From a virus (taxonomy: Duplodnaviria > Heunggongvirae > Uroviricota > Caudoviricetes), in the IMG/VR virus record IMGVR_UViG_2703718858_000001, positions 1 to 39,617 of that record: 39,617 nucleotides of DNA, one strand, 5' to 3'. Shown here piece by piece: positions 1 through 34,617 of the stretch (position 1 is the stretch's first letter; each line of letters begins with the position of its first letter). A program made the position numbers and the translations under genes. The notes under the pieces were generated by a model. It ran no database searches. It was given only the letters and a program-made list of their open reading frames with translations, and had not been told where the DNA came from.

Positions 1-516
1 ATGAAATTTAAAAAATGTCTTCTGCCTGTGGCAATGTTAGCGTCATTCACTCTGGCAGGATGCCAGTCAAATGCTGACGATCATGCTGCCGATGTTTATC
101 AAACCGATCAACTGAATACCAAACAAGAAACTAAAACCGTTAATATTATTTCCATTCTTCCCGCAAAAGTTGCCGTAGACAACTCCCAAAATAAACGGAA
201 CGCACAAGCCTTCGGCGCGCTTATTGGCGCAGTCGCTGGCGGTGTTATCGGCCACAACGTCGGGTCTGGCAGCAATTCCGGAACGACGGCAGGTGCAGTT
301 GGCGGCGGAGCTGTAGGCGCGGCAGCGGGTTCTATGGTGAATGATAAAACCTTAGTGGAAGGTGTTTCTTTAACCTATAAGGAAGGCACCAAAGTGTATA
401 CCTCTACCCAGGTGGGTAAAGAGTGCCAGTTTACGACAGGTTTAGCCGTTGTTATTACCACGACGTATAACGAAACGCGTATTCAGCCAAATACCAAATG
501 TCCTGAAAAGAGCTAA
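1..516 (+). CDS. Outer-membrane lipoprotein with glycine-zipper region (YcfJ/Rick_17kDa_Anti-like); probably host
   Basis: Lipobox LAGC near N-terminus; Gly-rich GALIGAVAGGVIGHNVGSG segment; lies left of a strong terminator and the phage lysis genes. Confidence 0.6.
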   Translation: MKFKKCLLPVAMLASFTLAGCQSNADDHAADVYQTDQLNTKQETKTVNIISILPAKVAVDNSQNKRNAQAFGALIGAVAGGVIGHNVGSGSNSGTTAGAVGGGAVGAAAGSMVNDKTLVEGVSLTYKEGTKVYTSTQVGKECQFTTGLAVVITTTYNETRIQPNTKCPEKS

Positions 517-531
517 TAATCAGGAGGAGTC

Positions 532-1071
532 ATGAAGAAAGTTTTTCTTTGCGCCATCTTAGCCTCCTTAAGCTATCCGGCTATCGCCTCATCATTGCAG
601 GATCAACTCTCTGCTGTCGCAGAAGCGGAACAGCAAGGTAAAAATGAAGAGCAAAGGCAGCATGACGAATGGGTCGCGGAGCGCAACAGGGAAATCCAGC
701 AAGAGAAGCAACGTCGCGCAAATGCCCAGGCCGCCGCTAACAAAAGAGCGGCAACGGCAGCGGCAAATAAGAAAGCTCGTCAGGATAAACTGGACGCCGA
801 AGCCTCTGCGGACAAAAAACGCGATCAAAGTTATGAAGATGAGCTACGCAGCTTAGAGATTCAGAAACAAAAACTGGCGCTGGCGAAAGAAGAAGCCCGC
901 GTTAAGCGAGAAAACGAATTTATCGATCAGGAACTGAAGCACAAAGCTGCGCAAACCGATGTGGTGCAATCTGAAGCTGACGCCAACAGAAATATGACTG
1001 AAGGCGGTCGCGATCTGATGAAAAGCGTGGGCAAAGCAGAAGAGAACAAATCGGACAGCTGGTTTAATTAA
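532..1071 (+). CDS. Secreted coiled-coil protein of unknown function; probably host
   Basis: Signal peptide MKKVFLCAILASLSYPAIA; charged Ala/Lys/Glu/Gln-rich body; SD AGGAGG 5 nt upstream; followed by terminator. Confidence 0.55.
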   Translation: MKKVFLCAILASLSYPAIASSLQDQLSAVAEAEQQGKNEEQRQHDEWVAERNREIQQEKQRRANAQAAANKRAATAAANKKARQDKLDAEASADKKRDQSYEDELRSLEIQKQKLALAKEEARVKRENEFIDQELKHKAAQTDVVQSEADANRNMTEGGRDLMKSVGKAEENKSDSWFN

Positions 1072-3175: not shown

Positions 3176-5338
3176 TTAAGCGCTGAAACCGCCGACTCTA
3201 ACTTTTAGCGTAGAGAGATCAACATTAACAGTTATGTTTAATACACCACTCCCCGCTGAAATAGAGAATAAGCGCCGTCCGCCTGACGTTCCGCCCCCCG
3301 CCGGTGGAGTGGTATCGAGTTCACCTGTGATCGATATTGAAATGGTACCCTCACGGTTAGCAACGAGTAGCTCTAAACATTCAGCCCAGGTGTTTTGTGC
3401 AGAAGACCAAGCATCGATAAGGATTCTCTGCGTCGTTCTGTTTGGTATTGCGATGGATTTGACTTCACCTGTATTTACCAGACCTTGAAAACGAGTTCCG
3501 TAATCTATCCAGCTAATGCTATAACCTGCATTTGCTGCAGGGTCTTGAGAGGTATACCAGGTCTTGGTTCTCACGCCAGTATGACCGATTGTCAGTAGAG
3601 GACGAGCAAATTGATCTCGATGAATGTATGCATTATCTCTGATCCCGTTGCTCTGCAGATCAATATCTGCAGCACGTGGATTAGGGAAAGTCGCTTTTCC
3701 ACCAACATCAAAAACATCATAATGATTTGCAACTGCAGGAATCCATCCGTTCCTGTCCAGATTTCTAAAGAAATCCTCGAAAGCCAGCCAGTATGATTGC
3801 TGATGACCTAAAAGGTTAGGGTGAACAGTCTGTATTTCAGGGGTCCGGTCAAATAATGCCGTTTCACCATATTTAGCAACAGCATCAAACCAGTATTTTT
3901 CCACATCGATAAGCACGCAACCCATTTCTACAGCGATTTTCCTGATCGCATCGTTTCCTCGAAGGAAGCGGACACCTGCTTGAATATTTACCCCATTCCA
4001 CTCAAACGTGACATTTGAGTTTGCGGCAGATGGTATAATGTTATTATCAGAGACTGGGGCCGGAGAAGATGAAGGCCATATTTGAGAAATTCCAGCCGGC
4101 ATGCTCCAGCTATATTCAGAAATATTCGGATGAGGTGTGGTTGTTAGCACAACATCCCCGCCGGCCTCCCTGACTAAATTAATAGCATTTCGAAGGCGCT
4201 GTTTAAATCCGTTTTCATTGAATGTTTGCCCGGCATTATATTGTGCGGTAGGAAAATCATTCATTCCATATATAAACAAAGCAATATCAGGATATATTCC
4301 TTCAGCAACAACTTCAGGCCATTGGTTAACAATAAAATTATTTATCGTTGAACCATTAACAGATTTGTTTGTGAAGTTAATGGGATAAATACGCTGCTTA
4401 TTTAGCGTATCGTTCATATACTCAAAAAATTTAGCAACTGGTGCCTGTGTTGCTGGATCAGGAAGCGTAGCACCAACCCCAACAGAAGAACCAAACCCAT
4501 AGAGTCGAAATAAGTTCTGATAGCCAGAAACCCCATGCCGATAAGCTGTTAATTTATTGACGAAATTTGGGAAAAGGGCCTGTGATGATCCAGACGCAGC
4601 ACGAATAGAAGCCTCTACCGTTCTTCCTGTTTCCGTAGCAACTAAGCCAGCACCGTCTTTTGATGCTAGCTTGATTGCCAAATCTGCCGTTTCAGTTTGC
4701 CCTGCAATCGGAACAGGATCCCCCTGGTCATTGAATCCAATCAGCATATTTGCTCTGGCTCGTACAGATGCCATGATTCCTACCTGACTTTCCGGAACTC
4801 GCAAAGTTCGCTGGAAAAGACCATCTGCATGATGAGTGCTGTCATTGTCTCCCGAGTCCACATAAGATTTTGTTGCTGCATCCTGTGCCTGTGACGGGTC
4901 ACGCAGATTACGAATGCGGTTGTTGAGTGCGTCGTAATAGTTCGCGATGAACGACGGCTTACGCAGCGCCAGGCGGAGAAAGCTGAAGCACTGCTGGATA
5001 AGCATGGTCAGCTTGTCGAACGCATCCTCATGTACCTCTGCGAAAAATTTCCCCTGGTTACGCAGATCAGTCTCCTGGGTAACAGGCAAGTCACGTGAGA
5101 TAGAGATTTGCCATCCGTTGGCCAGAGGTGACATCAACACAATGCTCCCACCTGAATAGCTTCCCGCCCCGGTAACGGAGTAATCGGTATCCAGAGTAAG
5201 TACCGTAATATTTTCGTTAAGGTCAGCAACCTGTACTGTCAGATCTGACTTCTTGAAAATACGAAACTTGTACGGGAAAGATGTGGTAACGCCGTTACCA
5301 GTGTATTCGTTGTGGTCAACTTCGGTTGAGACCGTCAT
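3176..5338 (-). CDS. Tailspike/tail fibre with T7 gp17-like N-terminal adaptor domain and SGNH-hydrolase-like central region
   Basis: N-terminus MTVSTEVDHNEYTGNGVTTSFPY...LDTDY resembles podovirus fibre attachment domain; GFGSS, GMND and HPN motifs resemble SGNH blocks I, III, V; GGAGA SD. Confidence 0.75.
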   Translation of the reverse strand: MTVSTEVDHNEYTGNGVTTSFPYKFRIFKKSDLTVQVADLNENITVLTLDTDYSVTGAGSYSGGSIVLMSPLANGWQISISRDLPVTQETDLRNQGKFFAEVHEDAFDKLTMLIQQCFSFLRLALRKPSFIANYYDALNNRIRNLRDPSQAQDAATKSYVDSGDNDSTHHADGLFQRTLRVPESQVGIMASVRARANMLIGFNDQGDPVPIAGQTETADLAIKLASKDGAGLVATETGRTVEASIRAASGSSQALFPNFVNKLTAYRHGVSGYQNLFRLYGFGSSVGVGATLPDPATQAPVAKFFEYMNDTLNKQRIYPINFTNKSVNGSTINNFIVNQWPEVVAEGIYPDIALFIYGMNDFPTAQYNAGQTFNENGFKQRLRNAINLVREAGGDVVLTTTPHPNISEYSWSMPAGISQIWPSSSPAPVSDNNIIPSAANSNVTFEWNGVNIQAGVRFLRGNDAIRKIAVEMGCVLIDVEKYWFDAVAKYGETALFDRTPEIQTVHPNLLGHQQSYWLAFEDFFRNLDRNGWIPAVANHYDVFDVGGKATFPNPRAADIDLQSNGIRDNAYIHRDQFARPLLTIGHTGVRTKTWYTSQDPAANAGYSISWIDYGTRFQGLVNTGEVKSIAIPNRTTQRILIDAWSSAQNTWAECLELLVANREGTISISITGELDTTPPAGGGTSGGRRLFSISAGSGVLNITVNVDLSTLKVRVGGFSA

Positions 5339-5441
5339 GTTAAATCTCCAGATAGTCGCAGCACCCGTTGCGCCGCATATCTGGTTATTCTATTACCTGA
5401 AAAACCATATATGTATAGAAAGACTATAAATACCAATAGAT

Positions 5442-5458
5442 ATTACCTTTATGGTAAT
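5442..5458. promoter_or_regulatory. 17-bp palindromic operator ATTACC-TTTAT-GGTAAT
   Basis: Perfect inverted repeat; same motif recurs at OL, OR and other promoters in the window. Confidence 0.6.
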
Positions 5459-5496
5459 TTGCAAAACGTGCTGGATAGCAAACAAATTATTTGATA

Positions 5497-5512
5497 CTGT
5501 ATAAATATACAG
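5497..5512 (+). promoter_or_regulatory. LexA (SOS) box CTGTATAAATATACAG
   Basis: CTGT-N8-ACAG with AT-only core; flanks TA...TT extend the 20-mer match; ends 21 bp upstream of ATG 5534. Confidence 0.7.
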
Positions 5513-5533
5513 TTATTGCATGGAGAAGATAAG

Positions 5534-5791
5534 ATGCAGCGGTATCACTATCCACTGGAAGACGGATTTACCGAAAGGATTCACACGCCGGGAGGCGTCA
5601 GGTCACTGGTGGAGGGATCGCACTTGATGAAATTACTCCGGGATCTCGATAAGGATGGATTTAATGTCGATGGCCCACTTGCCGAACTGACTGCACTGAT
5701 TAACTACGTCACCAGCTCACAGATGTCTATGCAGGATCTGCAAACACATCTCGACTATTGTGCCGAACAATTACGAAAACAAACCCGGTAA
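5534..5791 (+). CDS. Small antirepressor-domain protein (paralog of Bro-N antirepressor C-terminus), putatively SOS-regulated
   Basis: ATG 5534 with GGAGAAG SD; 85 aa; aligns with C-terminal ~70 aa of 6940-7650 protein (IH.P.GV..L.E.S.LM.LL..L..DG..V.G..AELT...Y......D.QTH..Y). Confidence 0.6.
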   Translation: MQRYHYPLEDGFTERIHTPGGVRSLVEGSHLMKLLRDLDKDGFNVDGPLAELTALINYVTSSQMSMQDLQTHLDYCAEQLRKQTR

Positions 5792-5797
5792 ATTTAA

Positions 5798-5822
5798 AGG
5801 CCGCAAGAGCGGCCTATCGTTT
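5798..5822. terminator. Hairpin terminator between convergent genes
   Basis: AGGCCGC-AAGA-GCGGCCT stem-loop followed by T-rich tract. Confidence 0.5.
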
Positions 5823-6542
5823 CGCTTTGTGCTCATCCCAGCACGTTTTGCACCATGCCATTAAGCCGTCCGCATTTTGATTATTAGGGTAAAAGCTGGT
5901 TCGTTTTCTGCGGACATTACAAATTGGGCACCACTTCATATGGCGTGTATTCTTTGGGCCATCGAGACACCTTGCACACCACTTAGTCAATCCATCTGGA
6001 TTTTTTGACGATTTCCTGAATTTTTCATATGGAAGGTTTATTCTGCATCGCAAGCACTGCTTGCTACCACTTGAAACTCTGTTAGCTGATTCTTCTTTTG
6101 GCGGCGATACAGAAGGTATTCTTGCTGGCTCTGATACTGCCTGAGGTGCTTTTTTAGATGACTGAGACGATATGTCATCACCAGGGAATCTTCCATGATA
6201 TGCCGGACGCGTTGACACTCCAGGTGGAAGCTCAGCTGTAAACGGCTTTGGCTGAATCAGTTGCCTCTCTTTTGCTAACTCCTGCTGTTTATAATATGTC
6301 TGGATTACCGCACTATCATAAGCAGGAGGTGCGGAAATATCAGGCGCATTACCTCCAGTTTTTTGAAACTGAGTAGAGGTGTGTTCTATCACCTGTGTAC
6401 GATTAATCGTTATCTCCCCATCTTCGGTCTTTATCGTTTTGTTATGATTAACGACCGTACGATCAGAGATCTTAGTCTTGTTCTGGTTGATAACGTAAAT
6501 AATCACCGCAACCACACCAACAACTATCCAGAAAACTTCCAT
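5814..6542 (-). CDS. Membrane-anchored protein with C-terminal tandem zinc-ribbon (CxxC...WCxxC x2)
   Basis: N-terminal TM helix, Pro/Ser-rich linker, two repeats of a DGL-x2-WC-x2-C motif; GAGGAA SD; operator 6562-6578 just upstream. Confidence 0.65.
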   Translation of the reverse strand: MEVFWIVVGVVAVIIYVINQNKTKISDRTVVNHNKTIKTEDGEITINRTQVIEHTSTQFQKTGGNAPDISAPPAYDSAVIQTYYKQQELAKERQLIQPKPFTAELPPGVSTRPAYHGRFPGDDISSQSSKKAPQAVSEPARIPSVSPPKEESANRVSSGSKQCLRCRINLPYEKFRKSSKNPDGLTKWCARCLDGPKNTRHMKWCPICNVRRKRTSFYPNNQNADGLMAWCKTCWDEHKAKR

Positions 6543-6561
6543 TGCTTTTCCTCACAATAAC

Positions 6562-6578
6562 ATTACCTTAAAGGTAAT
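6562..6578. promoter_or_regulatory. Operator ATTACC-TTAAA-GGTAAT
   Basis: Perfect palindrome in divergent promoter region between 5814-6542 and ant. Confidence 0.6.
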
Positions 6579-6654
6579 ATCTTGCTTTCAGGTGATCAAG
6601 CGTTAAACGTAATCAACCAAATGCGGTTGATTTTAATATTTATCCGCGCTTATC

Positions 6655-6671
6655 ATTACCTTTGCGGTAAA
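6655..6671. promoter_or_regulatory. Operator ATTACC-TTTGC-GGTAAA
   Basis: One mismatch from the palindrome; second site of divergent region. Confidence 0.5.
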
Positions 6672-6689
6672 TTTACATCGCACTCCTCT

Positions 6690-6783
6690 TGTGCCATAGT
6701 AATCGGGCACTGGCAAAATCCAGTGCCGGGATTGGCGTCCCGGGTTACTAAGTGGCGCATACCACGCCAGACGTGGTTTTTTT
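6690..6783 (+). ncRNA. Candidate small RNA / structured leader (three stem-loops ending in intrinsic terminator)
   Basis: Consecutive hairpins plus ACCACG-CCAGA-CGTGGT followed by T7 at 6761-6783; contains CTAAGTGG identical to ant SD region and complementary to leader octamer 6849-6856. Confidence 0.3.
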
Positions 6784-6939
6784 ATGCGTTAAGCACAGCT
6801 ATATCCGAATTATGGTGGGCTGGGCAGGGGTCCGAAAGGACACCGGTACCACTTAGGCCGGCACGCCAACCTTGTCCAGTTCACCACCAGTAATTGGCGT
6901 TGCGGTGGTGATTAAAATCACTAAGTGGAGATAACCACC

Positions 6940-7650
6940 ATGGCTAATGCTCAAACTGCCATCTTCAAATTTGAATCTGTTAACCCTATCCGTTCCATCA
7001 TTATCGATGGCCAACCATGGTTTGTAGCCCAAGACGTTTGTAGTGCGCTGCGTATCCAAAACGTCACCCAAGCACTTGAAAAACTGGATGATGATGAAAG
7101 GTCTATGTTCAACATAGGGCATGAACATCGTGCAATTTTTGACAGCCGAGTAAAAGAGATCAACATCATCTCCGAGTCAGGCCTCTACACACTGATCCTC
7201 CGCTGCCGCGACGCAGTGACACCAGGCACTATCCCCTACCGCTTTCGTAAATGGGTTACAGGTGAGGTTCTTCCTCAGATCCGCCGCACCGGAAGTTACA
7301 TTAAAAACTCGCTCCCGCAGGAAGAACGCATAAAGATGGTTGCCGACCAGGTTGCAAACGCCACAGCATCAGCAGTGATGCAGGCGATGAAGATAGAGAA
7401 CAAAACCTACAGTGCCCCGCTGAAGCCCGGCTACCGCAGCCTGATTCATTCGCCGTCTGGTGTTCTCGGCCTGACGGAGAACTCACTGCTGATGAATTTG
7501 CTGAACCAGTTACAGGAAGACGGGCATGACGTATCGGGCGCAGCGGCGGAACTGACCACCATGTTCTGCTACATCGTCGGTGTGAGCAAATGCCTGCGTG
7601 ATATCCAGACGCACGCGGAGTACATCAACGACAAAGCAGGGTTCTTCTGA
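6940..7650 (+). CDS. Antirepressor, Bro-N domain protein with C-terminal domain shared with 5534-5791
   Basis: N-terminus FKFESVNPIRSIIIDGQPWFVAQDV...GLYTLILRCRD...FRKWVTGEVLPQIRRTGSY matches Bro-N pattern; ATG 6940 preferred over GTG 6925. Confidence 0.75.
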   Translation: MANAQTAIFKFESVNPIRSIIIDGQPWFVAQDVCSALRIQNVTQALEKLDDDERSMFNIGHEHRAIFDSRVKEINIISESGLYTLILRCRDAVTPGTIPYRFRKWVTGEVLPQIRRTGSYIKNSLPQEERIKMVADQVANATASAVMQAMKIENKTYSAPLKPGYRSLIHSPSGVLGLTENSLLMNLLNQLQEDGHDVSGAAAELTTMFCYIVGVSKCLRDIQTHAEYINDKAGFF

Positions 7651-7724
7651 CAGGCGGTGGCACAGGGATGTGCCTTTAAATAATTCTGTACAGATTGCAG
7701 GTGAATAGCTTACTATTACCTCAC

Positions 7725-7741
7725 GGGTGATCCATAGCGAT
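7725..7741. promoter_or_regulatory. Degenerate operator ATTACC-TCACG-GGTGAT
   Basis: One mismatch in right half-site; upstream of leader ORF and cargo gene. Confidence 0.35.
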
Positions 7742-7767
7742 TAGGCACCGATACAGGAGGAGCCCAC

Positions 7768-7800
7768 ATGAGAAAATTTGACGAGTACGAAGGCGTTTAA
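7768..7800 (+). CDS. 10-codon leader ORF (MRKFDEYEGV)
   Basis: Very strong SD CAGGAGGAG 5 nt upstream; stop 19 nt before terminator hairpin; attenuator-like arrangement. Confidence 0.3.
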   Translation: MRKFDEYEGV

Positions 7801-7819
7801 CATTCGGATAGTTTAATGA

Positions 7820-7842
7820 CGGGGCCATTAGGCCCCGTTTTC
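7820..7842 (+). terminator. Rho-independent terminator/attenuator
   Basis: CGGGGCC-ATTA-GGCCCCG stem followed by TTTTC; ends 7 nt before GGAG SD of next gene. Confidence 0.65.
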
Positions 7843-7859
7843 ATGTCTGGAGACAATTT

Positions 7860-8399
7860 GTGTTAAGTGAAGAAATGCAATTTGCCATGGCCGTGGCTCA
7901 AATAGTAAGTGCAGTCGCGGTTTCGCTTGGCTTGTTCATAGCTATCGCTACTATTATTTATAATGTAAATACAGCGAGAAAAGTACACACTTCAGTATTC
8001 CTTGGTGAAAGCAGGTTTGATGTAGATTATAAGAAAGGCCTATCTACTATGCGCCGCATTCACGAATCGAACAAATCATTCCGCTCTTATATGTATCCAA
8101 GCAATGGGCAGGCTGATCTTACGGATGAAGAAAAGACAGAGAAGAGAGAAATAATTTACTGTCTAGGTTTCTACGAACGCATGGCTGTGAGCGTGAAGCG
8201 GAAAACTTATGATGAGACCATGATTAAGGAAGTATTTTACAGCTCCGTTGTAAATAACTATCAGATTGCGCTACCTCTTATACAAGCCATTAGAGAAAAA
8301 GAAAACATAAACACATATTTTAAAGAATATGAATGGTTGGCCACACGATGGAAGGATTGTCCATTGAAGGATAAATCCCCGTGGTACAAGTTTTGGTAA
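7860..8399 (+). CDS. Low-GC cargo protein, N-terminal TM anchor plus ~150-aa cytoplasmic domain; function unknown (exclusion/defence candidate)
   Basis: Sampled GC 28-47% versus about 50% in flanks; GTG 7860 with GGAG SD (alternative ATG 7875); hydrophobic N-terminus. Confidence 0.6.
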   Translation: MLSEEMQFAMAVAQIVSAVAVSLGLFIAIATIIYNVNTARKVHTSVFLGESRFDVDYKKGLSTMRRIHESNKSFRSYMYPSNGQADLTDEEKTEKREIIYCLGFYERMAVSVKRKTYDETMIKEVFYSSVVNNYQIALPLIQAIREKENINTYFKEYEWLATRWKDCPLKDKSPWYKFW

Positions 8400-8421
8400 G
8401 CCCGCGCTGCGGGCTTTTTTT
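8399..8421 (+). terminator. Rho-independent terminator
   Basis: GC stem AGCCCG/CGGGCT followed by T7. Confidence 0.7.
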
Positions 8422-8493
8422 GTGGACGAAACAAAAGTCAGTGCTACACTCATTGACGCCACATTGAGGTGGCTTATAGATGGAAATTTCACA

Positions 8494-8655
8494 ATGAAAA
8501 AAGCATTTGCTGCACTGTTCGTTTTGTTGTCTCTGGTAGCTTCAACTCAGGCCTTTGCCGGCCGTTGTCAGCACGACAGCGATACTGCCGCTGACGGCTC
8601 CCGCTGCGGTGGGCGTTCTGCGGATTCCCGCCCGGGCGGCGGTGGCATTCGTTAA
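8494..8655 (+). CDS. Small secreted Gly/Arg/Cys-rich peptide
   Basis: Signal peptide MKKAFAALFVLLSLVASTQAFA then 31-aa mature peptide; weak SD. Confidence 0.35.
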   Translation: MKKAFAALFVLLSLVASTQAFAGRCQHDSDTAADGSRCGGRSADSRPGGGGIR

Positions 8656-8678
8656 AAACAAGGCCGCGAAAGCGGCCT
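8654..8678 (-). terminator. Terminator for minus-strand operon
   Basis: AGGCCGC-GAAA-GCGGCCT hairpin with T-run on minus strand. Confidence 0.55.
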
Positions 8679-8686
8679 GTGACATT

Positions 8687-8983
8687 TCACGTCCCTTTTC
8701 TGAATGATAGCCATTCGAAAAATGATGACATTCCACCGCAGACAATAGCAAAGATTATCCCACCAAAGAATAGAAGGCCAGCCTGCCACCACTCCCACCG
8801 CCATACATCCACAGCGCCAACCATACCAACAATCGCTCCAACAAATGGAATATAGCTCACGATGAAAGCAATGGGGGCTGCAATTATCCAGTGCAATCCC
8901 CACCATGATTCAAGCCCAGCCATAATTGCTGCCAACTGAAAAAGACCAACGACGATATAAACAATGAATCCTATAGCTTGCAT
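8687..8983 (-). CDS. Small integral membrane protein (3 TM)
   Basis: AGGTGA SD 5 nt upstream of ATG; highly hydrophobic, Trp-rich. Confidence 0.6.
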   Translation of the reverse strand: MQAIGFIVYIVVGLFQLAAIMAGLESWWGLHWIIAAPIAFIVSYIPFVGAIVGMVGAVDVWRWEWWQAGLLFFGGIIFAIVCGGMSSFFEWLSFRKGT

Positions 8984-8995
8984 GTAGTCACCTAT

Positions 8996-9169
8996 TTACC
9001 CAATAAAAATAAGAGGCCTCCCCTCAATAAGGCTTGCAACAAGAACTACTCCCTGCACAACAAAGATGAACCAGCAAATAGCTTGAGTCTGAGGGTTAAG
9101 AAAATATTTGTAGCGGTCAATAAATAACAATCCACCAGAAATTATCACACTCAAAATAATTAAAAACAC
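8996..9169 (-). CDS. Small hydrophobic membrane peptide (57 aa), GTG start
   Basis: Not in ORF track; AAGGAAG SD directly after stop of 9179-11653; open frame to TAA at 8996-8998. Confidence 0.3.
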   Translation of the reverse strand: MFLIILSVIISGGLLFIDRYKYFLNPQTQAICWFIFVVQGVVLVASLIEGRPLIFIG

Positions 9170-9178
9170 AACACTTCC

Positions 9179-25240: not shown

Positions 25241-25257
25241 ATTACCTTTCAGGTAAC
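25241..25257. promoter_or_regulatory. Operator ATTACC-TTTCA-GGTAAC upstream of head operon
   Basis: Same palindrome family; TTGACA hexamer at 25220-25225 nearby. Confidence 0.5.
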
Positions 25258-25578: not shown

Positions 25579-25655
25579 GTGGCATTAGCTCAGTTGGACA
25601 GAGCAACCGCCTTCTAAGCGGTTGGTCGCAGGTTCGAATCCTGCATGCCACGCCA
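25579..25655 (+). tRNA. tRNA-Arg (anticodon UCU), phage-encoded
   Basis: Perfect 7-bp acceptor stem GTGGCAT/ATGCCAC, U8, D-arm GCTC..GAGC with GG, anticodon stem ACCGC/GCGGT, loop CTTCTAA, T-arm GCAGG-TTCGAAT-CCTGC, discriminator G and CCA. Confidence 0.9.
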
Positions 25656-27776: not shown

Positions 27777-28369
27777 TGATTGCCATCCTGACGTTCTTTG
27801 AGTCGCTTCCTGGCTGCTGCTATGCGATCAGCAATTGTCACATTCACATTAACATCCAGGCGTTCTTTGAATGCGTTGACGTCGACGTGCTTACCAATCA
27901 GTTCGAGGTTCTTCACCTTGTCAGGCCATTTAATTTTTTTGAGGATTGTCTCTATCGAATCCTCGTTCATGTTCATGATGGTCGATGACAGATCAAAGCC
28001 GCTAAGCGTAGTGCGCCAGATTTTCGGCCACTCGCGGATTGGCTTAAGGCTCCCATCGTCGTTGAGGATATCAATCACGTCCATCTGGTCGATCTCCACC
28101 AGGCGCATGAGAACGTAATCAGCACTGACGCGCATTCGTTTGTTGCGCTCCTCCATCAACTCGGCAATCCGTTTTTGAATGCGTTCATCGCGCATCATGA
28201 CACTGGCTTTAACTGCCGCTGTATTTGGGGAGAATCCTGCATTAATCGCTGCCTGAGTCTGGTTTTCAGGCGTTTTGATGTATGACTGGCAATAAGCCTC
28301 CTGCATTGCTGTTAGTGGCTTAAATTGCGTTGATTTGCGTTTATAGGTTTTAGGTTCAGCAGGCATCAT
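27773..28369 (-). CDS. Terminase small subunit
   Basis: Directly upstream of TerL; ATG 28369 chosen over TTG 28447. Confidence 0.65.
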   Translation of the reverse strand: MMPAEPKTYKRKSTQFKPLTAMQEAYCQSYIKTPENQTQAAINAGFSPNTAAVKASVMMRDERIQKRIAELMEERNKRMRVSADYVLMRLVEIDQMDVIDILNDDGSLKPIREWPKIWRTTLSGFDLSSTIMNMNEDSIETILKKIKWPDKVKNLELIGKHVDVNAFKERLDVNVNVTIADRIAAARKRLKERQDGNQ

Positions 28370-28376
28370 AACCACC

Positions 28377-28409
28377 GTGGTAATAGTTACCGTTGTGGTA
28401 ATAGTACCA
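28377..28409. repeat. Tandem 15-bp repeats GTGGTAATAGTTACC / GTGGTAATAGTACCA upstream of terminase
   Basis: Two direct copies 18 bp apart, each containing GGTAA-N3-TTACC (operator half-sites in opposite arrangement). Confidence 0.5.
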
Positions 28410-31432: not shown

Positions 31433-31449
31433 TTTACCCCTGAGGTAAT
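31433..31449. promoter_or_regulatory. Operator TTTACC-CCTGA-GGTAAT overlapping RBS of 31083-31430
   Basis: Palindrome family; spacer contains AGGGG SD on coding strand. Confidence 0.45.
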
Positions 31450-31494
31450 TAAAAACCACATAAGACACGAAATCAATAGATCTTAGAACATTTT

Positions 31495-31511
31495 ATTACC
31501 TAGCAGGTAAT
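31495..31511. promoter_or_regulatory. Operator ATTACC-TAGCA-GGTAAT
   Basis: Perfect palindrome just downstream of terminator after P-like gene. Confidence 0.55.
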
Positions 31512-33778: not shown

Positions 33779-33843
33779 TTCACCCATAAGGTAACAAAAA
33801 TCAAGGATAGTTACCTATGAGGTGCATTTACCTGTTGGGTAAT
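33779..33843. promoter_or_regulatory. OR region: three operators (33779-33795, 33810-33826, 33827-33843)
   Basis: TTCACC-CATAA-GGTAAC, GTTACC-TATGA-GGTGCA, TTTACC-TGTTG-GGTAAT between divergent cro-like and repressor genes. Confidence 0.6.
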
Positions 33844-33897: not shown

Positions 33898-34482
33898 ATG
33901 AAAAGTATCCAGGACGTCCGCAGGCAAAATCTCAACGACTTGATCGACCGTGAATTCAATGGTGTTCAGACGCGGATGGCAGAAAAACTTGGAACTCAGG
34001 CAAATCTGGTAAACCGCTGGGCTCTTGGCAAGAAGGTTATCGGCGACCAGGTTGCGCGAAAAATTGAAGCTGCCGCCAATAAACCCCGTAACTGGCTTGA
34101 TATCGATCGCTCGCTTTCTCAGGAAGGTTTTCAGCCTGTCGGCCCAAGCGACATTGGTCAGCTGGCGGCTCACAACCTGGAACGCTGGATGAGCGAAAGC
34201 CGCGACCTTTCAACACAGGGAAAACTTCACCGCGCATCCGGCGTCGCCCAGGTGACAATCAGCCGCCTGTTAAACAATGAGGTCAGCGTTTCCATTTCCA
34301 CCCTGGAGAATGTTGCATCCGCATTCGGGCGTCACGGATATGAACTACTGATTCACCCGCACGACCCTGCGACTATCAACTATGACCGCTCGCGCTACGC
34401 ATTGTTACCCGAAACCGAGAAAGCAAAGATCGAAAGTTACATTGAATTTGTCATCAACCAGAACGAAAAAAACAAACAATAA
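33898..34482 (+). CDS. Immunity repressor, tandem HTH, no S24 autocleavage domain
   Basis: Two HTH-like segments; no Ser-Lys peptidase motifs; flanked by operator clusters and followed by terminator. Confidence 0.7.
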   Translation: MKSIQDVRRQNLNDLIDREFNGVQTRMAEKLGTQANLVNRWALGKKVIGDQVARKIEAAANKPRNWLDIDRSLSQEGFQPVGPSDIGQLAAHNLERWMSESRDLSTQGKLHRASGVAQVTISRLLNNEVSVSISTLENVASAFGRHGYELLIHPHDPATINYDRSRYALLPETEKAKIESYIEFVINQNEKNKQ

Positions 34483-34538: not shown

Positions 34539-34617
34539 ATTACCTAATGGGTAATTTTTTTAACTCATATCTATTGACATCAAACCAGATACGCATAATT
34601 ATTACCTCAACGGTAAC
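34539..34617 (+). promoter_or_regulatory. OL/PL region: operators 34539-34555 and 34601-34617 flanking -35 TTGACA (34574-34579)
   Basis: ATTACC-TAATG-GGTAAT and ATTACC-TCAAC-GGTAAC; second site overlaps the -10 region. Confidence 0.6.

Follow-up and report, generated by a model that had tools for sequence, protein, structure and literature searches.

The 85-amino acid gene at 5534-5791 (+ strand) is very probably the ant gene of an epsilon15/phiV10-like prophage, preceded by a LexA operator and belonging to the same antirepressor switch as that of Salmonella phage SPC32H. The whole stretch of DNA analysed, 39,617 nucleotides and referred to here as the window, is an E. coli prophage of the epsilon15/phiV10 type, in the genus Uetakevirus. 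A first-pass annotation had proposed that a LexA-repressed antirepressor provides the route to inactivating a repressor that cannot cleave itself, and orthology to the experimentally resolved SPC32H system supports this proposal. The coordinates that it gave for the LexA box (5497-5512), the ATG (5534), the Shine-Dalgarno sequence GGAGAAG and the 85-amino acid open reading frame (5534-5791) are all exact. The LexA-Ant mechanism at the ant locus is already known and is not a discovery. It was reportedly worked out genetically in 2013 by Kim and Ryu (J Virol 87:11775) and structurally in 2016 by Kim et al. (PNAS 113:E2480), in a congeneric phage.

The left end of the window (1-1071) consists of the host genes yfgH and yfgI, and an att core, ATTGAGTGGGAATGATT, is found at 1162-1178. 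The same sequence is named as the attP core in the paper on phage ZX5 (PMC9782041). Over the ant region, identity to TL-2011b, PAS61, ZX5 and phiV10 is 95-98%. An intergenic region at 5339-5533 separates the leftward tailspike gene (3176-5338), which encodes an SGNH/GDSL domain, from the rightward ant reading frame. The order tailspike (-), ant (+) and, further on, gp19-gp18 (-) is common to the window, SPC32H, phiV10 and epsilon15, and the position of ant between the tailspike and the gp19/gp18 virion genes is also kept in Tyrion and Klebsiella relatives. In SPC32H, phiV10 and epsilon15 the genes downstream of ant encode a small membrane protein and an 824-amino acid virion protein, and rep is about 14 kb away. 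Compared with SPC32H, the stretch from ant to gp19/gp18 is expanded in the window by approximately 3.4 kb of additional genes, one of which encodes an Ant-like domain fused to Bro-N. This variable cargo, an insertion on the downstream side of ant at 5814-9170, includes the isrK/C4-Bro-N module and genes for a TM/Zn-ribbon protein, a DUF4760 protein and small membrane proteins; PADLOC returned 0 hits for defence function among the cargo proteins tested. The ant gene had been assigned to a cargo island, an assignment that must be withdrawn as the place beside the tailspike gene is the normal Uetakevirus ant locus, shared by synteny with epsilon15, phiV10 and SPC32H, and the cargo lies downstream of it. 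In the best-matching E. coli genome, BE311, the ant locus is identical and divergence begins at window position 7223. The Bro-N gene of BE311 is annotated as frameshifted, and the Bro-N reading frame of the window is intact.

Ant has a single match among solved structures, chain E of PDB 5D50 ('Anti-repressor protein', the Ant of SPC32H), with 83 residues aligned at an E value of 9.9e-47. It is also about 88% identical to the annotated ant product of KC911856 by tblastn, the two proteins being 85 (window) and 86 (SPC32H) amino acids long. Homologues of 85-86 amino acids were found across the Enterobacteriaceae. Among PHROGs, Ant matched phrog_450, phrog_15539 and phrog_1760 and no others. Pfam and NCBIfam gave no meaningful profile match; a DUF724 hit, at 17.6 bits below the cut-off of 38.4, was dismissed. 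An exhaustive profile search revealed a small family of Ant-like domains, 60 clusters at 50% identity, most of them stand-alone proteins of 80-130 amino acids together with a few C-terminal fusions of 150-319 amino acids. A repressor-binding unit that stands alone had been considered a novel feature of this phage. SPC32H Ant is already exactly such a unit.

The predicted target of Ant is the immunity repressor Rep, encoded at 33898-34482 (+), which aligns over its full length (residues 1-190) with chain A of 5D50 (E 4e-42). Rep is identical (100%) to the Rep proteins of phiV10 and ZX5 and 42% identical to that of SPC32H. It contains two HTH-type regions, and its only Pfam matches are HTH_3 and HTH_26. 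No match to Peptidase_S24 was obtained even at E<=1, which bears out the earlier observation that this repressor lacks a LexA-like autocleavage domain. Ant and Rep co-occur within the same phage records. Because Ant is 88% but Rep only 42% identical to the SPC32H proteins, conservation of the Ant-Rep contact is assumed, and we infer that the two proteins bind each other in the present phage as well.

The palindrome ATTACC-N5-GGTAAT occurs 16 times in the window with at most 2 mismatches, where 1.0 is expected. SPC32H has 12 occurrences, where 0.05 is expected. Copies flank rep in both genomes, and the epsilon15 record annotates the equivalent palindrome site as repressor binding. One putative operator (33827-33843) is situated between rep and a divergent cro-like gene, and two more (34539-34555 and 34601-34617, together spanning 34539-34617) are found downstream of rep, ahead of the early operon. 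The tailspike-ant intergenic region has a 17-bp copy, ATTACCTTTATGGTAAT (5442-5458), 37 nt upstream of the LexA box. This putative Rep operator would more likely serve the divergent tailspike promoter than ant. The tailspike-divergent locus, a Rep without an S24 domain and the ATTACC-N5-GGTAAT operator palindrome are all features that the window shares with SPC32H.

The cargo contains a second gene with an Ant-like domain. The Bro-N protein encoded at 6940-7650 (+) matches the Bro-N profile with an E value of 1e-19, and its C-terminal 80 or so amino acids are paralogous to Ant. The likeness of the 85-amino acid product to the Bro-N C-terminus, noticed by eye in the first-pass annotation, was confirmed by alignment (42% identity over 74 amino acids, E 1e-15), and both proteins match phrog_450 and 5D50 chain E, the Bro-N C-terminus with an E value of 1.2e-13. 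Identity between Ant and the fused domain is 37-42%, with 22 invariant positions shared with stand-alone Ants. Ant was also considered as a recent duplicate or degraded remnant of the Bro-N gene. This origin was rejected, Ant being 88% identical to stand-alone orthologues across genera versus 42% to the fused domain.

Rfam recognises three RNA elements just ahead of the Bro-N gene, on its own strand. A Rep-type palindrome at 6655-6671 abuts a promoter-like site at 6672-6700 (TTTACA, a 17-nt spacer and TG-CATAGT; + strand), and this site would be the start of the isrK/C4 transcript. An isrK-type RNA/c4-a1b1 element follows at 6694-6783 (+). Rfam scores isrK at 67.7 bits (6707-6783) and the overlapping c4-a1b1 at 44.1 bits (6694-6746), slightly below the gathering score of 46.7. 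The element includes the first copies of the C4 targets, TTGGCGT at 6732-6738 and CTAAGTGG at 6748-6755, and a terminator hairpin at 6761-6777. C4 antisense RNA itself maps to 6808-6891 (+) with 60.9 bits (gathering score 45), and is followed by the second target copies (6894-6928, +), TTGGCGT at 6894-6900 and CTAAGTGG at 6921-6928. Within C4, CCACTTAG is complementary to CTAAGTGG, and ACGCCAA to TTGGCGT. The Bro-N ATG is at 6940, and the ribosome-binding site ahead of it is overlapped by the downstream CTAAGTGG copy.

This arrangement resembles the immI region of P1 and P7 (c4 RNA-icd-ant), in which C4 RNA is also encoded on the same strand upstream of an antirepressor-type gene and two target pairs are present, one upstream of it and one covering the ribosome-binding site. 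The Gifsy-1 isrK-orf45-anrP operon has a similar design (PMC4825925), and APSE phages also have isrK and c4 ahead of a Bro-N gene (bioRxiv 10.1101/2020.03.17.996009). Unlike P1, the window module has no icd/orf45-like leader, as no such reading frame fits in the 48 nt between the end of C4 (6891) and the Bro-N ATG, and the C-terminus of its effector has the fold of SPC32H Ant, not that of P1 Ant.

The Bro-N protein is a probable second antirepressor. It is 81% identical to ORF4 of ZX5, with residues 74-236 identical, and overexpression of ORF4 reduced the lysogen titre about 1000-fold (PMC9782041). The ZX5 paper, the sole functional study of a near-identical phage, examined the Bro-N protein rather than the small Ant, and it makes no mention of the small Ant, LexA or the isrK/C4 RNAs (PMC9782041).

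The ORF4 result raises the question of whether the Bro-N protein is the main inducer, with the small Ant being redundant or acting mainly in trans on other resident repressors of the Uetakevirus type, as in Gifsy phages. A role in trans would fit the far stronger conservation of Ant than of Rep across heteroimmune relatives (88% vs 42%), as might be found for an antirepressor of broad specificity, and trans-acting antirepressors are reported for Gifsy phages (PMC3121763). However, the Bro-N module is absent from Salmonella relatives, SPC32H among them, whose records each contain one Ant-like place, and there Ant alone runs the switch. Furthermore, the Bro-N protein of phiV10, whose Rep is identical, lacks the Ant-like domain. 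Finally, the LexA box is found ahead of ant only. No second box of at least 12 bits turned up, either ahead of the Bro-N/isrK unit or within the immunity region, when the window was scanned with a matrix made from 20 E. coli LexA operators. Taken together these observations make it improbable that the small Ant is dispensable for induction or directed mainly at other prophages.

It is possible, and offered tentatively at somewhat less than an even chance, that two antirepressors with one Rep-binding fold converge on a single repressor, Ant responding to DNA damage through LexA and the Bro-N::Ant-like protein responding independently of SOS through its Rep-operator-flanked promoter and C4 RNA. 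Such dual wiring would be the sole part of the system with any novelty; it is not described for SPC32H, which has no Bro-N module. An SOS-independent Bro-N route might, for example, provide anti-immunity on superinfection, and Ant and the Bro-N protein might form mixed oligomers.

A regulatory role for Ant, in which the 85-amino acid protein modulates the Bro-N antirepressor through mixed oligomers of the common domain instead of binding Rep, could draw on the 37-42% identity and the invariant positions noted above and on the tetrameric state of SPC32H Ant (PMC9638917), but it is very unlikely, because the orthologous Ant contacts Rep directly in crystal structure 5D50 and many relatives have Ant without a Bro-N fusion.

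The putative LexA operator is the 20-mer TACTGTATAAATATACAGTT (5495-5514), which agrees with the E. coli LexA consensus at 18/20 positions. Its 16-bp core, CTGTATAAATATACAG (5497-5512), ends 21 nt before the ATG at 5534. The 20-mer is the sole match to TACTGTATATATATACAGTA with at most 3 mismatches in the 39.6 kb of the window, and none of 100 shuffled sequences contained any match. On the matrix it scores 28.5 bits, more than any of the 20 training operators, and the runner-up in the window reaches 11.8. The core had been described as a near-consensus LexA box fitting CTGT-N8-ACAG. That description holds for the 20-mer; the bare CTGT-N8-ACAG pattern, in contrast, is not enriched, with 11 matches at up to 1 mismatch versus 13.7 expected, 3 of them exact.

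SPC32H has the corresponding box, TACTGTATGTTTATACAGTG, which aligns with the window box column for column and ends at the same distance (21 nt) from the ATG. It scores 25.9 bits compared with 28.5 bits for the window box, which is nearer the consensus. SPC32H and its variant SPC32N were compared over 1455 bp and differ at 2 bases. One difference is inside the tailspike gene. The other, the sole intergenic difference there, is a C to A change in the ACAG half-site at the base equivalent to window C5510. According to Kim and Ryu (2013), the SPC32H and SPC32N genomes are reportedly 2 nt apart and a change in the LexA site is reported to lead to constitutive Ant production and forced lytic growth. 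The C to A change seen between the two records matches this reported mutation.

A LexA-type box ends 20-21 nt ahead of the ant ATG in 19 loci. These comprise the window, the SPC32N mutant, 9 further phage genomes and 8 bacterial genomes, and they represent Escherichia, Salmonella, Enterobacter, Klebsiella, Citrobacter, Erwinia, Superficieibacter, Pseudocitrobacter, Scandinavium and Kluyvera. In an alignment of 15 loci, the ATTACC and GGTA half-sites of the upstream palindrome, CTGGA, ATACAGT and the ATG are unchanged, and TG and TA..TGT show little or no variation. The Shine-Dalgarno sequence GGAGAAG is conserved, and the 8 central bases of the box are free to vary. Retention of the half-sites around a variable centre is the pattern of a protein operator and not of a chance repeat. 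Judged by this alignment, the window operator is orthologous to the SPC32H operator and under selection. The AT-rich intergenic region and the chance frequency of the minimal CTGT-N8-ACAG pattern would be compatible with a fortuitous repeat or a promoter element, leaving ant without SOS control, but the uniqueness and score of the 20-mer, its constant offset from the ATG and the SPC32N mutation within it make this reading scarcely credible.

The likely promoter of ant overlaps the box. A -35-like hexamer, TGGATA (5472-5477, +), includes the invariant CTGGA block in part, and an extended -10-like element, TGaTACTGT (5492-5500, +), conserved in the 15 loci, overlaps the left half of the LexA box. 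The spacer between TGGATA and TACTGT is 17 nt. A scan for consensus promoters called no ant promoter; from conservation we infer that TGGATA and TGaTACTGT together form it. The LexA operator is directly upstream of ant, and its overlap with the promoter is deduced from position. The 20-mer ends 7 nt before the Shine-Dalgarno sequence (5522-5528, +), so bound LexA must occupy the transcription start site or the region just downstream. LexA is predicted to bind 5495-5514 in the present prophage, and the near-consensus box suggests tight repression and late derepression in the SOS response. A GC-rich hairpin, AGGCCGC-AAGA-GCGGCCT (5798-5815), is found just 3' of the ant stop codon, with a folding energy of -15.5 kcal/mol but a z-score of only -1.75. 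The hairpin probably terminates transcription in both directions, serving the convergent gene at 5814-6542 as well as ant. Because the hairpin comes right after the stop codon, ant appears to be monocistronic.

In the proposed switch, host LexA would occupy 5495-5514 in the lysogen, overlapping the -10/start region of the ant promoter, and Ant would not be made. Rep, which is not self-cleaving, would keep the lytic promoters shut through the ATTACC-N5-GGTAAT operators. DNA damage would activate RecA, LexA would cleave itself, and the monocistronic ant transcript would be produced. Ant, which is tetrameric in SPC32H, would then bind Rep and split the DNA-binding Rep tetramer into dimers, leading to prophage induction. 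A review citing Kim and Ryu 2013 describes the same sequence, LexA cleavage in the SOS response followed by Ant synthesis and inhibition of the repressor (PMC7380047). In SPC32H, as summarised in a later paper, Rep is tetrameric on DNA, and an Ant tetramer attaches to two Rep dimers and so breaks the Rep tetramer (PMC9638917).

The nearest relative of the window system is SPC32H (PDB 5D50 and 5D4Z; KC911856 and KC911857), a phage of the same genus, Uetakevirus. The first-pass annotation had likened the locus to Gifsy-type phages and to Tum of coliphage 186. The logic is indeed the same, but the closest counterpart is SPC32H Ant itself. Tum of 186 and Fels-2, GfoA and GfhA of Gifsy-1 and Gifsy-3, and AntC of N15 are likewise small antirepressors behind a LexA box that act on a non-cleavable repressor (PMC7380047, PMC3121763). 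They differ from Ant, which has no Pfam or NCBIfam match, in protein family, genome position and phage type. By analogy, Ant is filed as working like Tum, GfoA and GfhA without being classed in their families. In the abstract of Kim and Ryu, SPC32H Ant is said to be 'structurally distinct' from the antirepressors of Siphoviridae and Myoviridae.

The immI region of P22, a temperate phage with a short tail, is similar in location: its antirepressor locus adjoins the tailspike gene (gene 9) and is distant from the primary immunity region. P22 Ant is large, unrelated and controlled by Arc, Mnt and sar RNA, not by LexA. The c2 repressor of P22 is itself RecA-cleavable (PMC7380047).

Of 5426 complete E. 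coli genomes, 531 carry the ant locus, as do all the E. coli phage records retrieved. Its product is labelled 'hypothetical protein' in each E. coli phage record that has annotation and in the RefSeq E. coli records among the matches listed. The practical value of the assignment is the correction of these annotations rather than a discovery. Prophages of the phiV10 type, among them those carried by O157 and by other pathogenic E. coli, are predicted to be SOS-inducible through LexA and Ant and not through repressor cleavage. A change of the single base at 5510 is predicted to yield a virulent phage, as in SPC32N.

The identity of the prophage Ant (5534-5791) to its ortholog in Salmonella phage SPC32H is 88%, but that of the immunity repressor Rep (33898-34482) is only 42%. 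This contrast points either to independent recombination of ant and the immunity region or to recognition of a conserved surface by Ant. Because Ant is so much better conserved than Rep, cross-induction among heteroimmune relatives is possible. Despite the divergence of the Reps, SPC32H uses the same 17-bp palindrome as this prophage, ATTACC-N5-GGTAAT, and the helix motif NLVNRW is conserved between the two repressors. The palindrome, a putative Rep operator, occurs 16 times in the window versus 1 expected. Besides those flanking rep, copies precede most transcription units, with sites at 5442-5458, 6562-6578, 6655-6671 and 7715-7731 in the left part and at 25241-25257, 28368-28402, 31433-31511, 33827-33843 and 34539-34617 in the right part.

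The LexA-type operator preceding ant was also compared among relatives. At six ant loci from Klebsiella, Superficieibacter and Kluyvera (L008, L009, L010, L016, L019 and L020) the left half-site is ATGT rather than CTGT, and the boxes score 14-19 bits on a matrix of 20 E. coli LexA operators. In these loci the operator may be weaker and Ant leakier.

Two RNA elements, isrK/c4-a1b1 and the C4 antisense RNA, occupy 6694-6891, directly 5' of the Bro-N gene (6940-7650). In the window sequence the C4 target pairs are duplicated near this gene, the second pair overlapping its ribosome-binding site. Together the RNA genes and the Bro-N gene constitute a P1-immI-like module, whose effector here has a C-terminal domain like SPC32H Ant. 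A 103-aa ORF (6582-6893, +) sits on the isrK/C4 RNA genes, as does a CDS annotated 'ash family protein' in the near-identical E. coli phage ZX5 (L012, 6455-6568); neither is probably protein-coding. E. coli BE311 has an ant locus 100% identical to that of the window; its sequence departs from the window's at position 7223 and beyond, and its Bro-N gene (L021, 10602-11313) is annotated with a frameshift. Thus the Bro-N module is mosaic among close relatives and in some cases decayed.

Since the window opens in host DNA, with the 3' part of yfgH (1-516) and yfgI (532-1071) followed by the att core ATTGAGTGGGAATGATT (1162-1178), it represents the end of an integrated prophage rather than a free phage genome. 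The region that separates ant from the virion genes holds variable cargo genes (5814-6542, -; 7860-8399, +; 8422-8655, +; 8687-8983, -), for which PADLOC gave no matches. One product, a 242-aa protein (phrog_6762), has an N-terminal TM segment, C-terminal Zn-ribbon repeats and weak endonuclease VII/Lar-like matches; the other genes encode a DUF4760 protein as well as small proteins that are secreted or located in the membrane. Behind the N-terminal adaptor conserved in Uetakevirus, the tailspike (3176-5338, -) contains an SGNH/GDSL esterase domain (residues ~299-513), which suggests receptor-destroying activity by O-antigen deacetylation. Like SPC32H, the prophage encodes a tRNA-Arg with anticodon tct (25579-25655, +).
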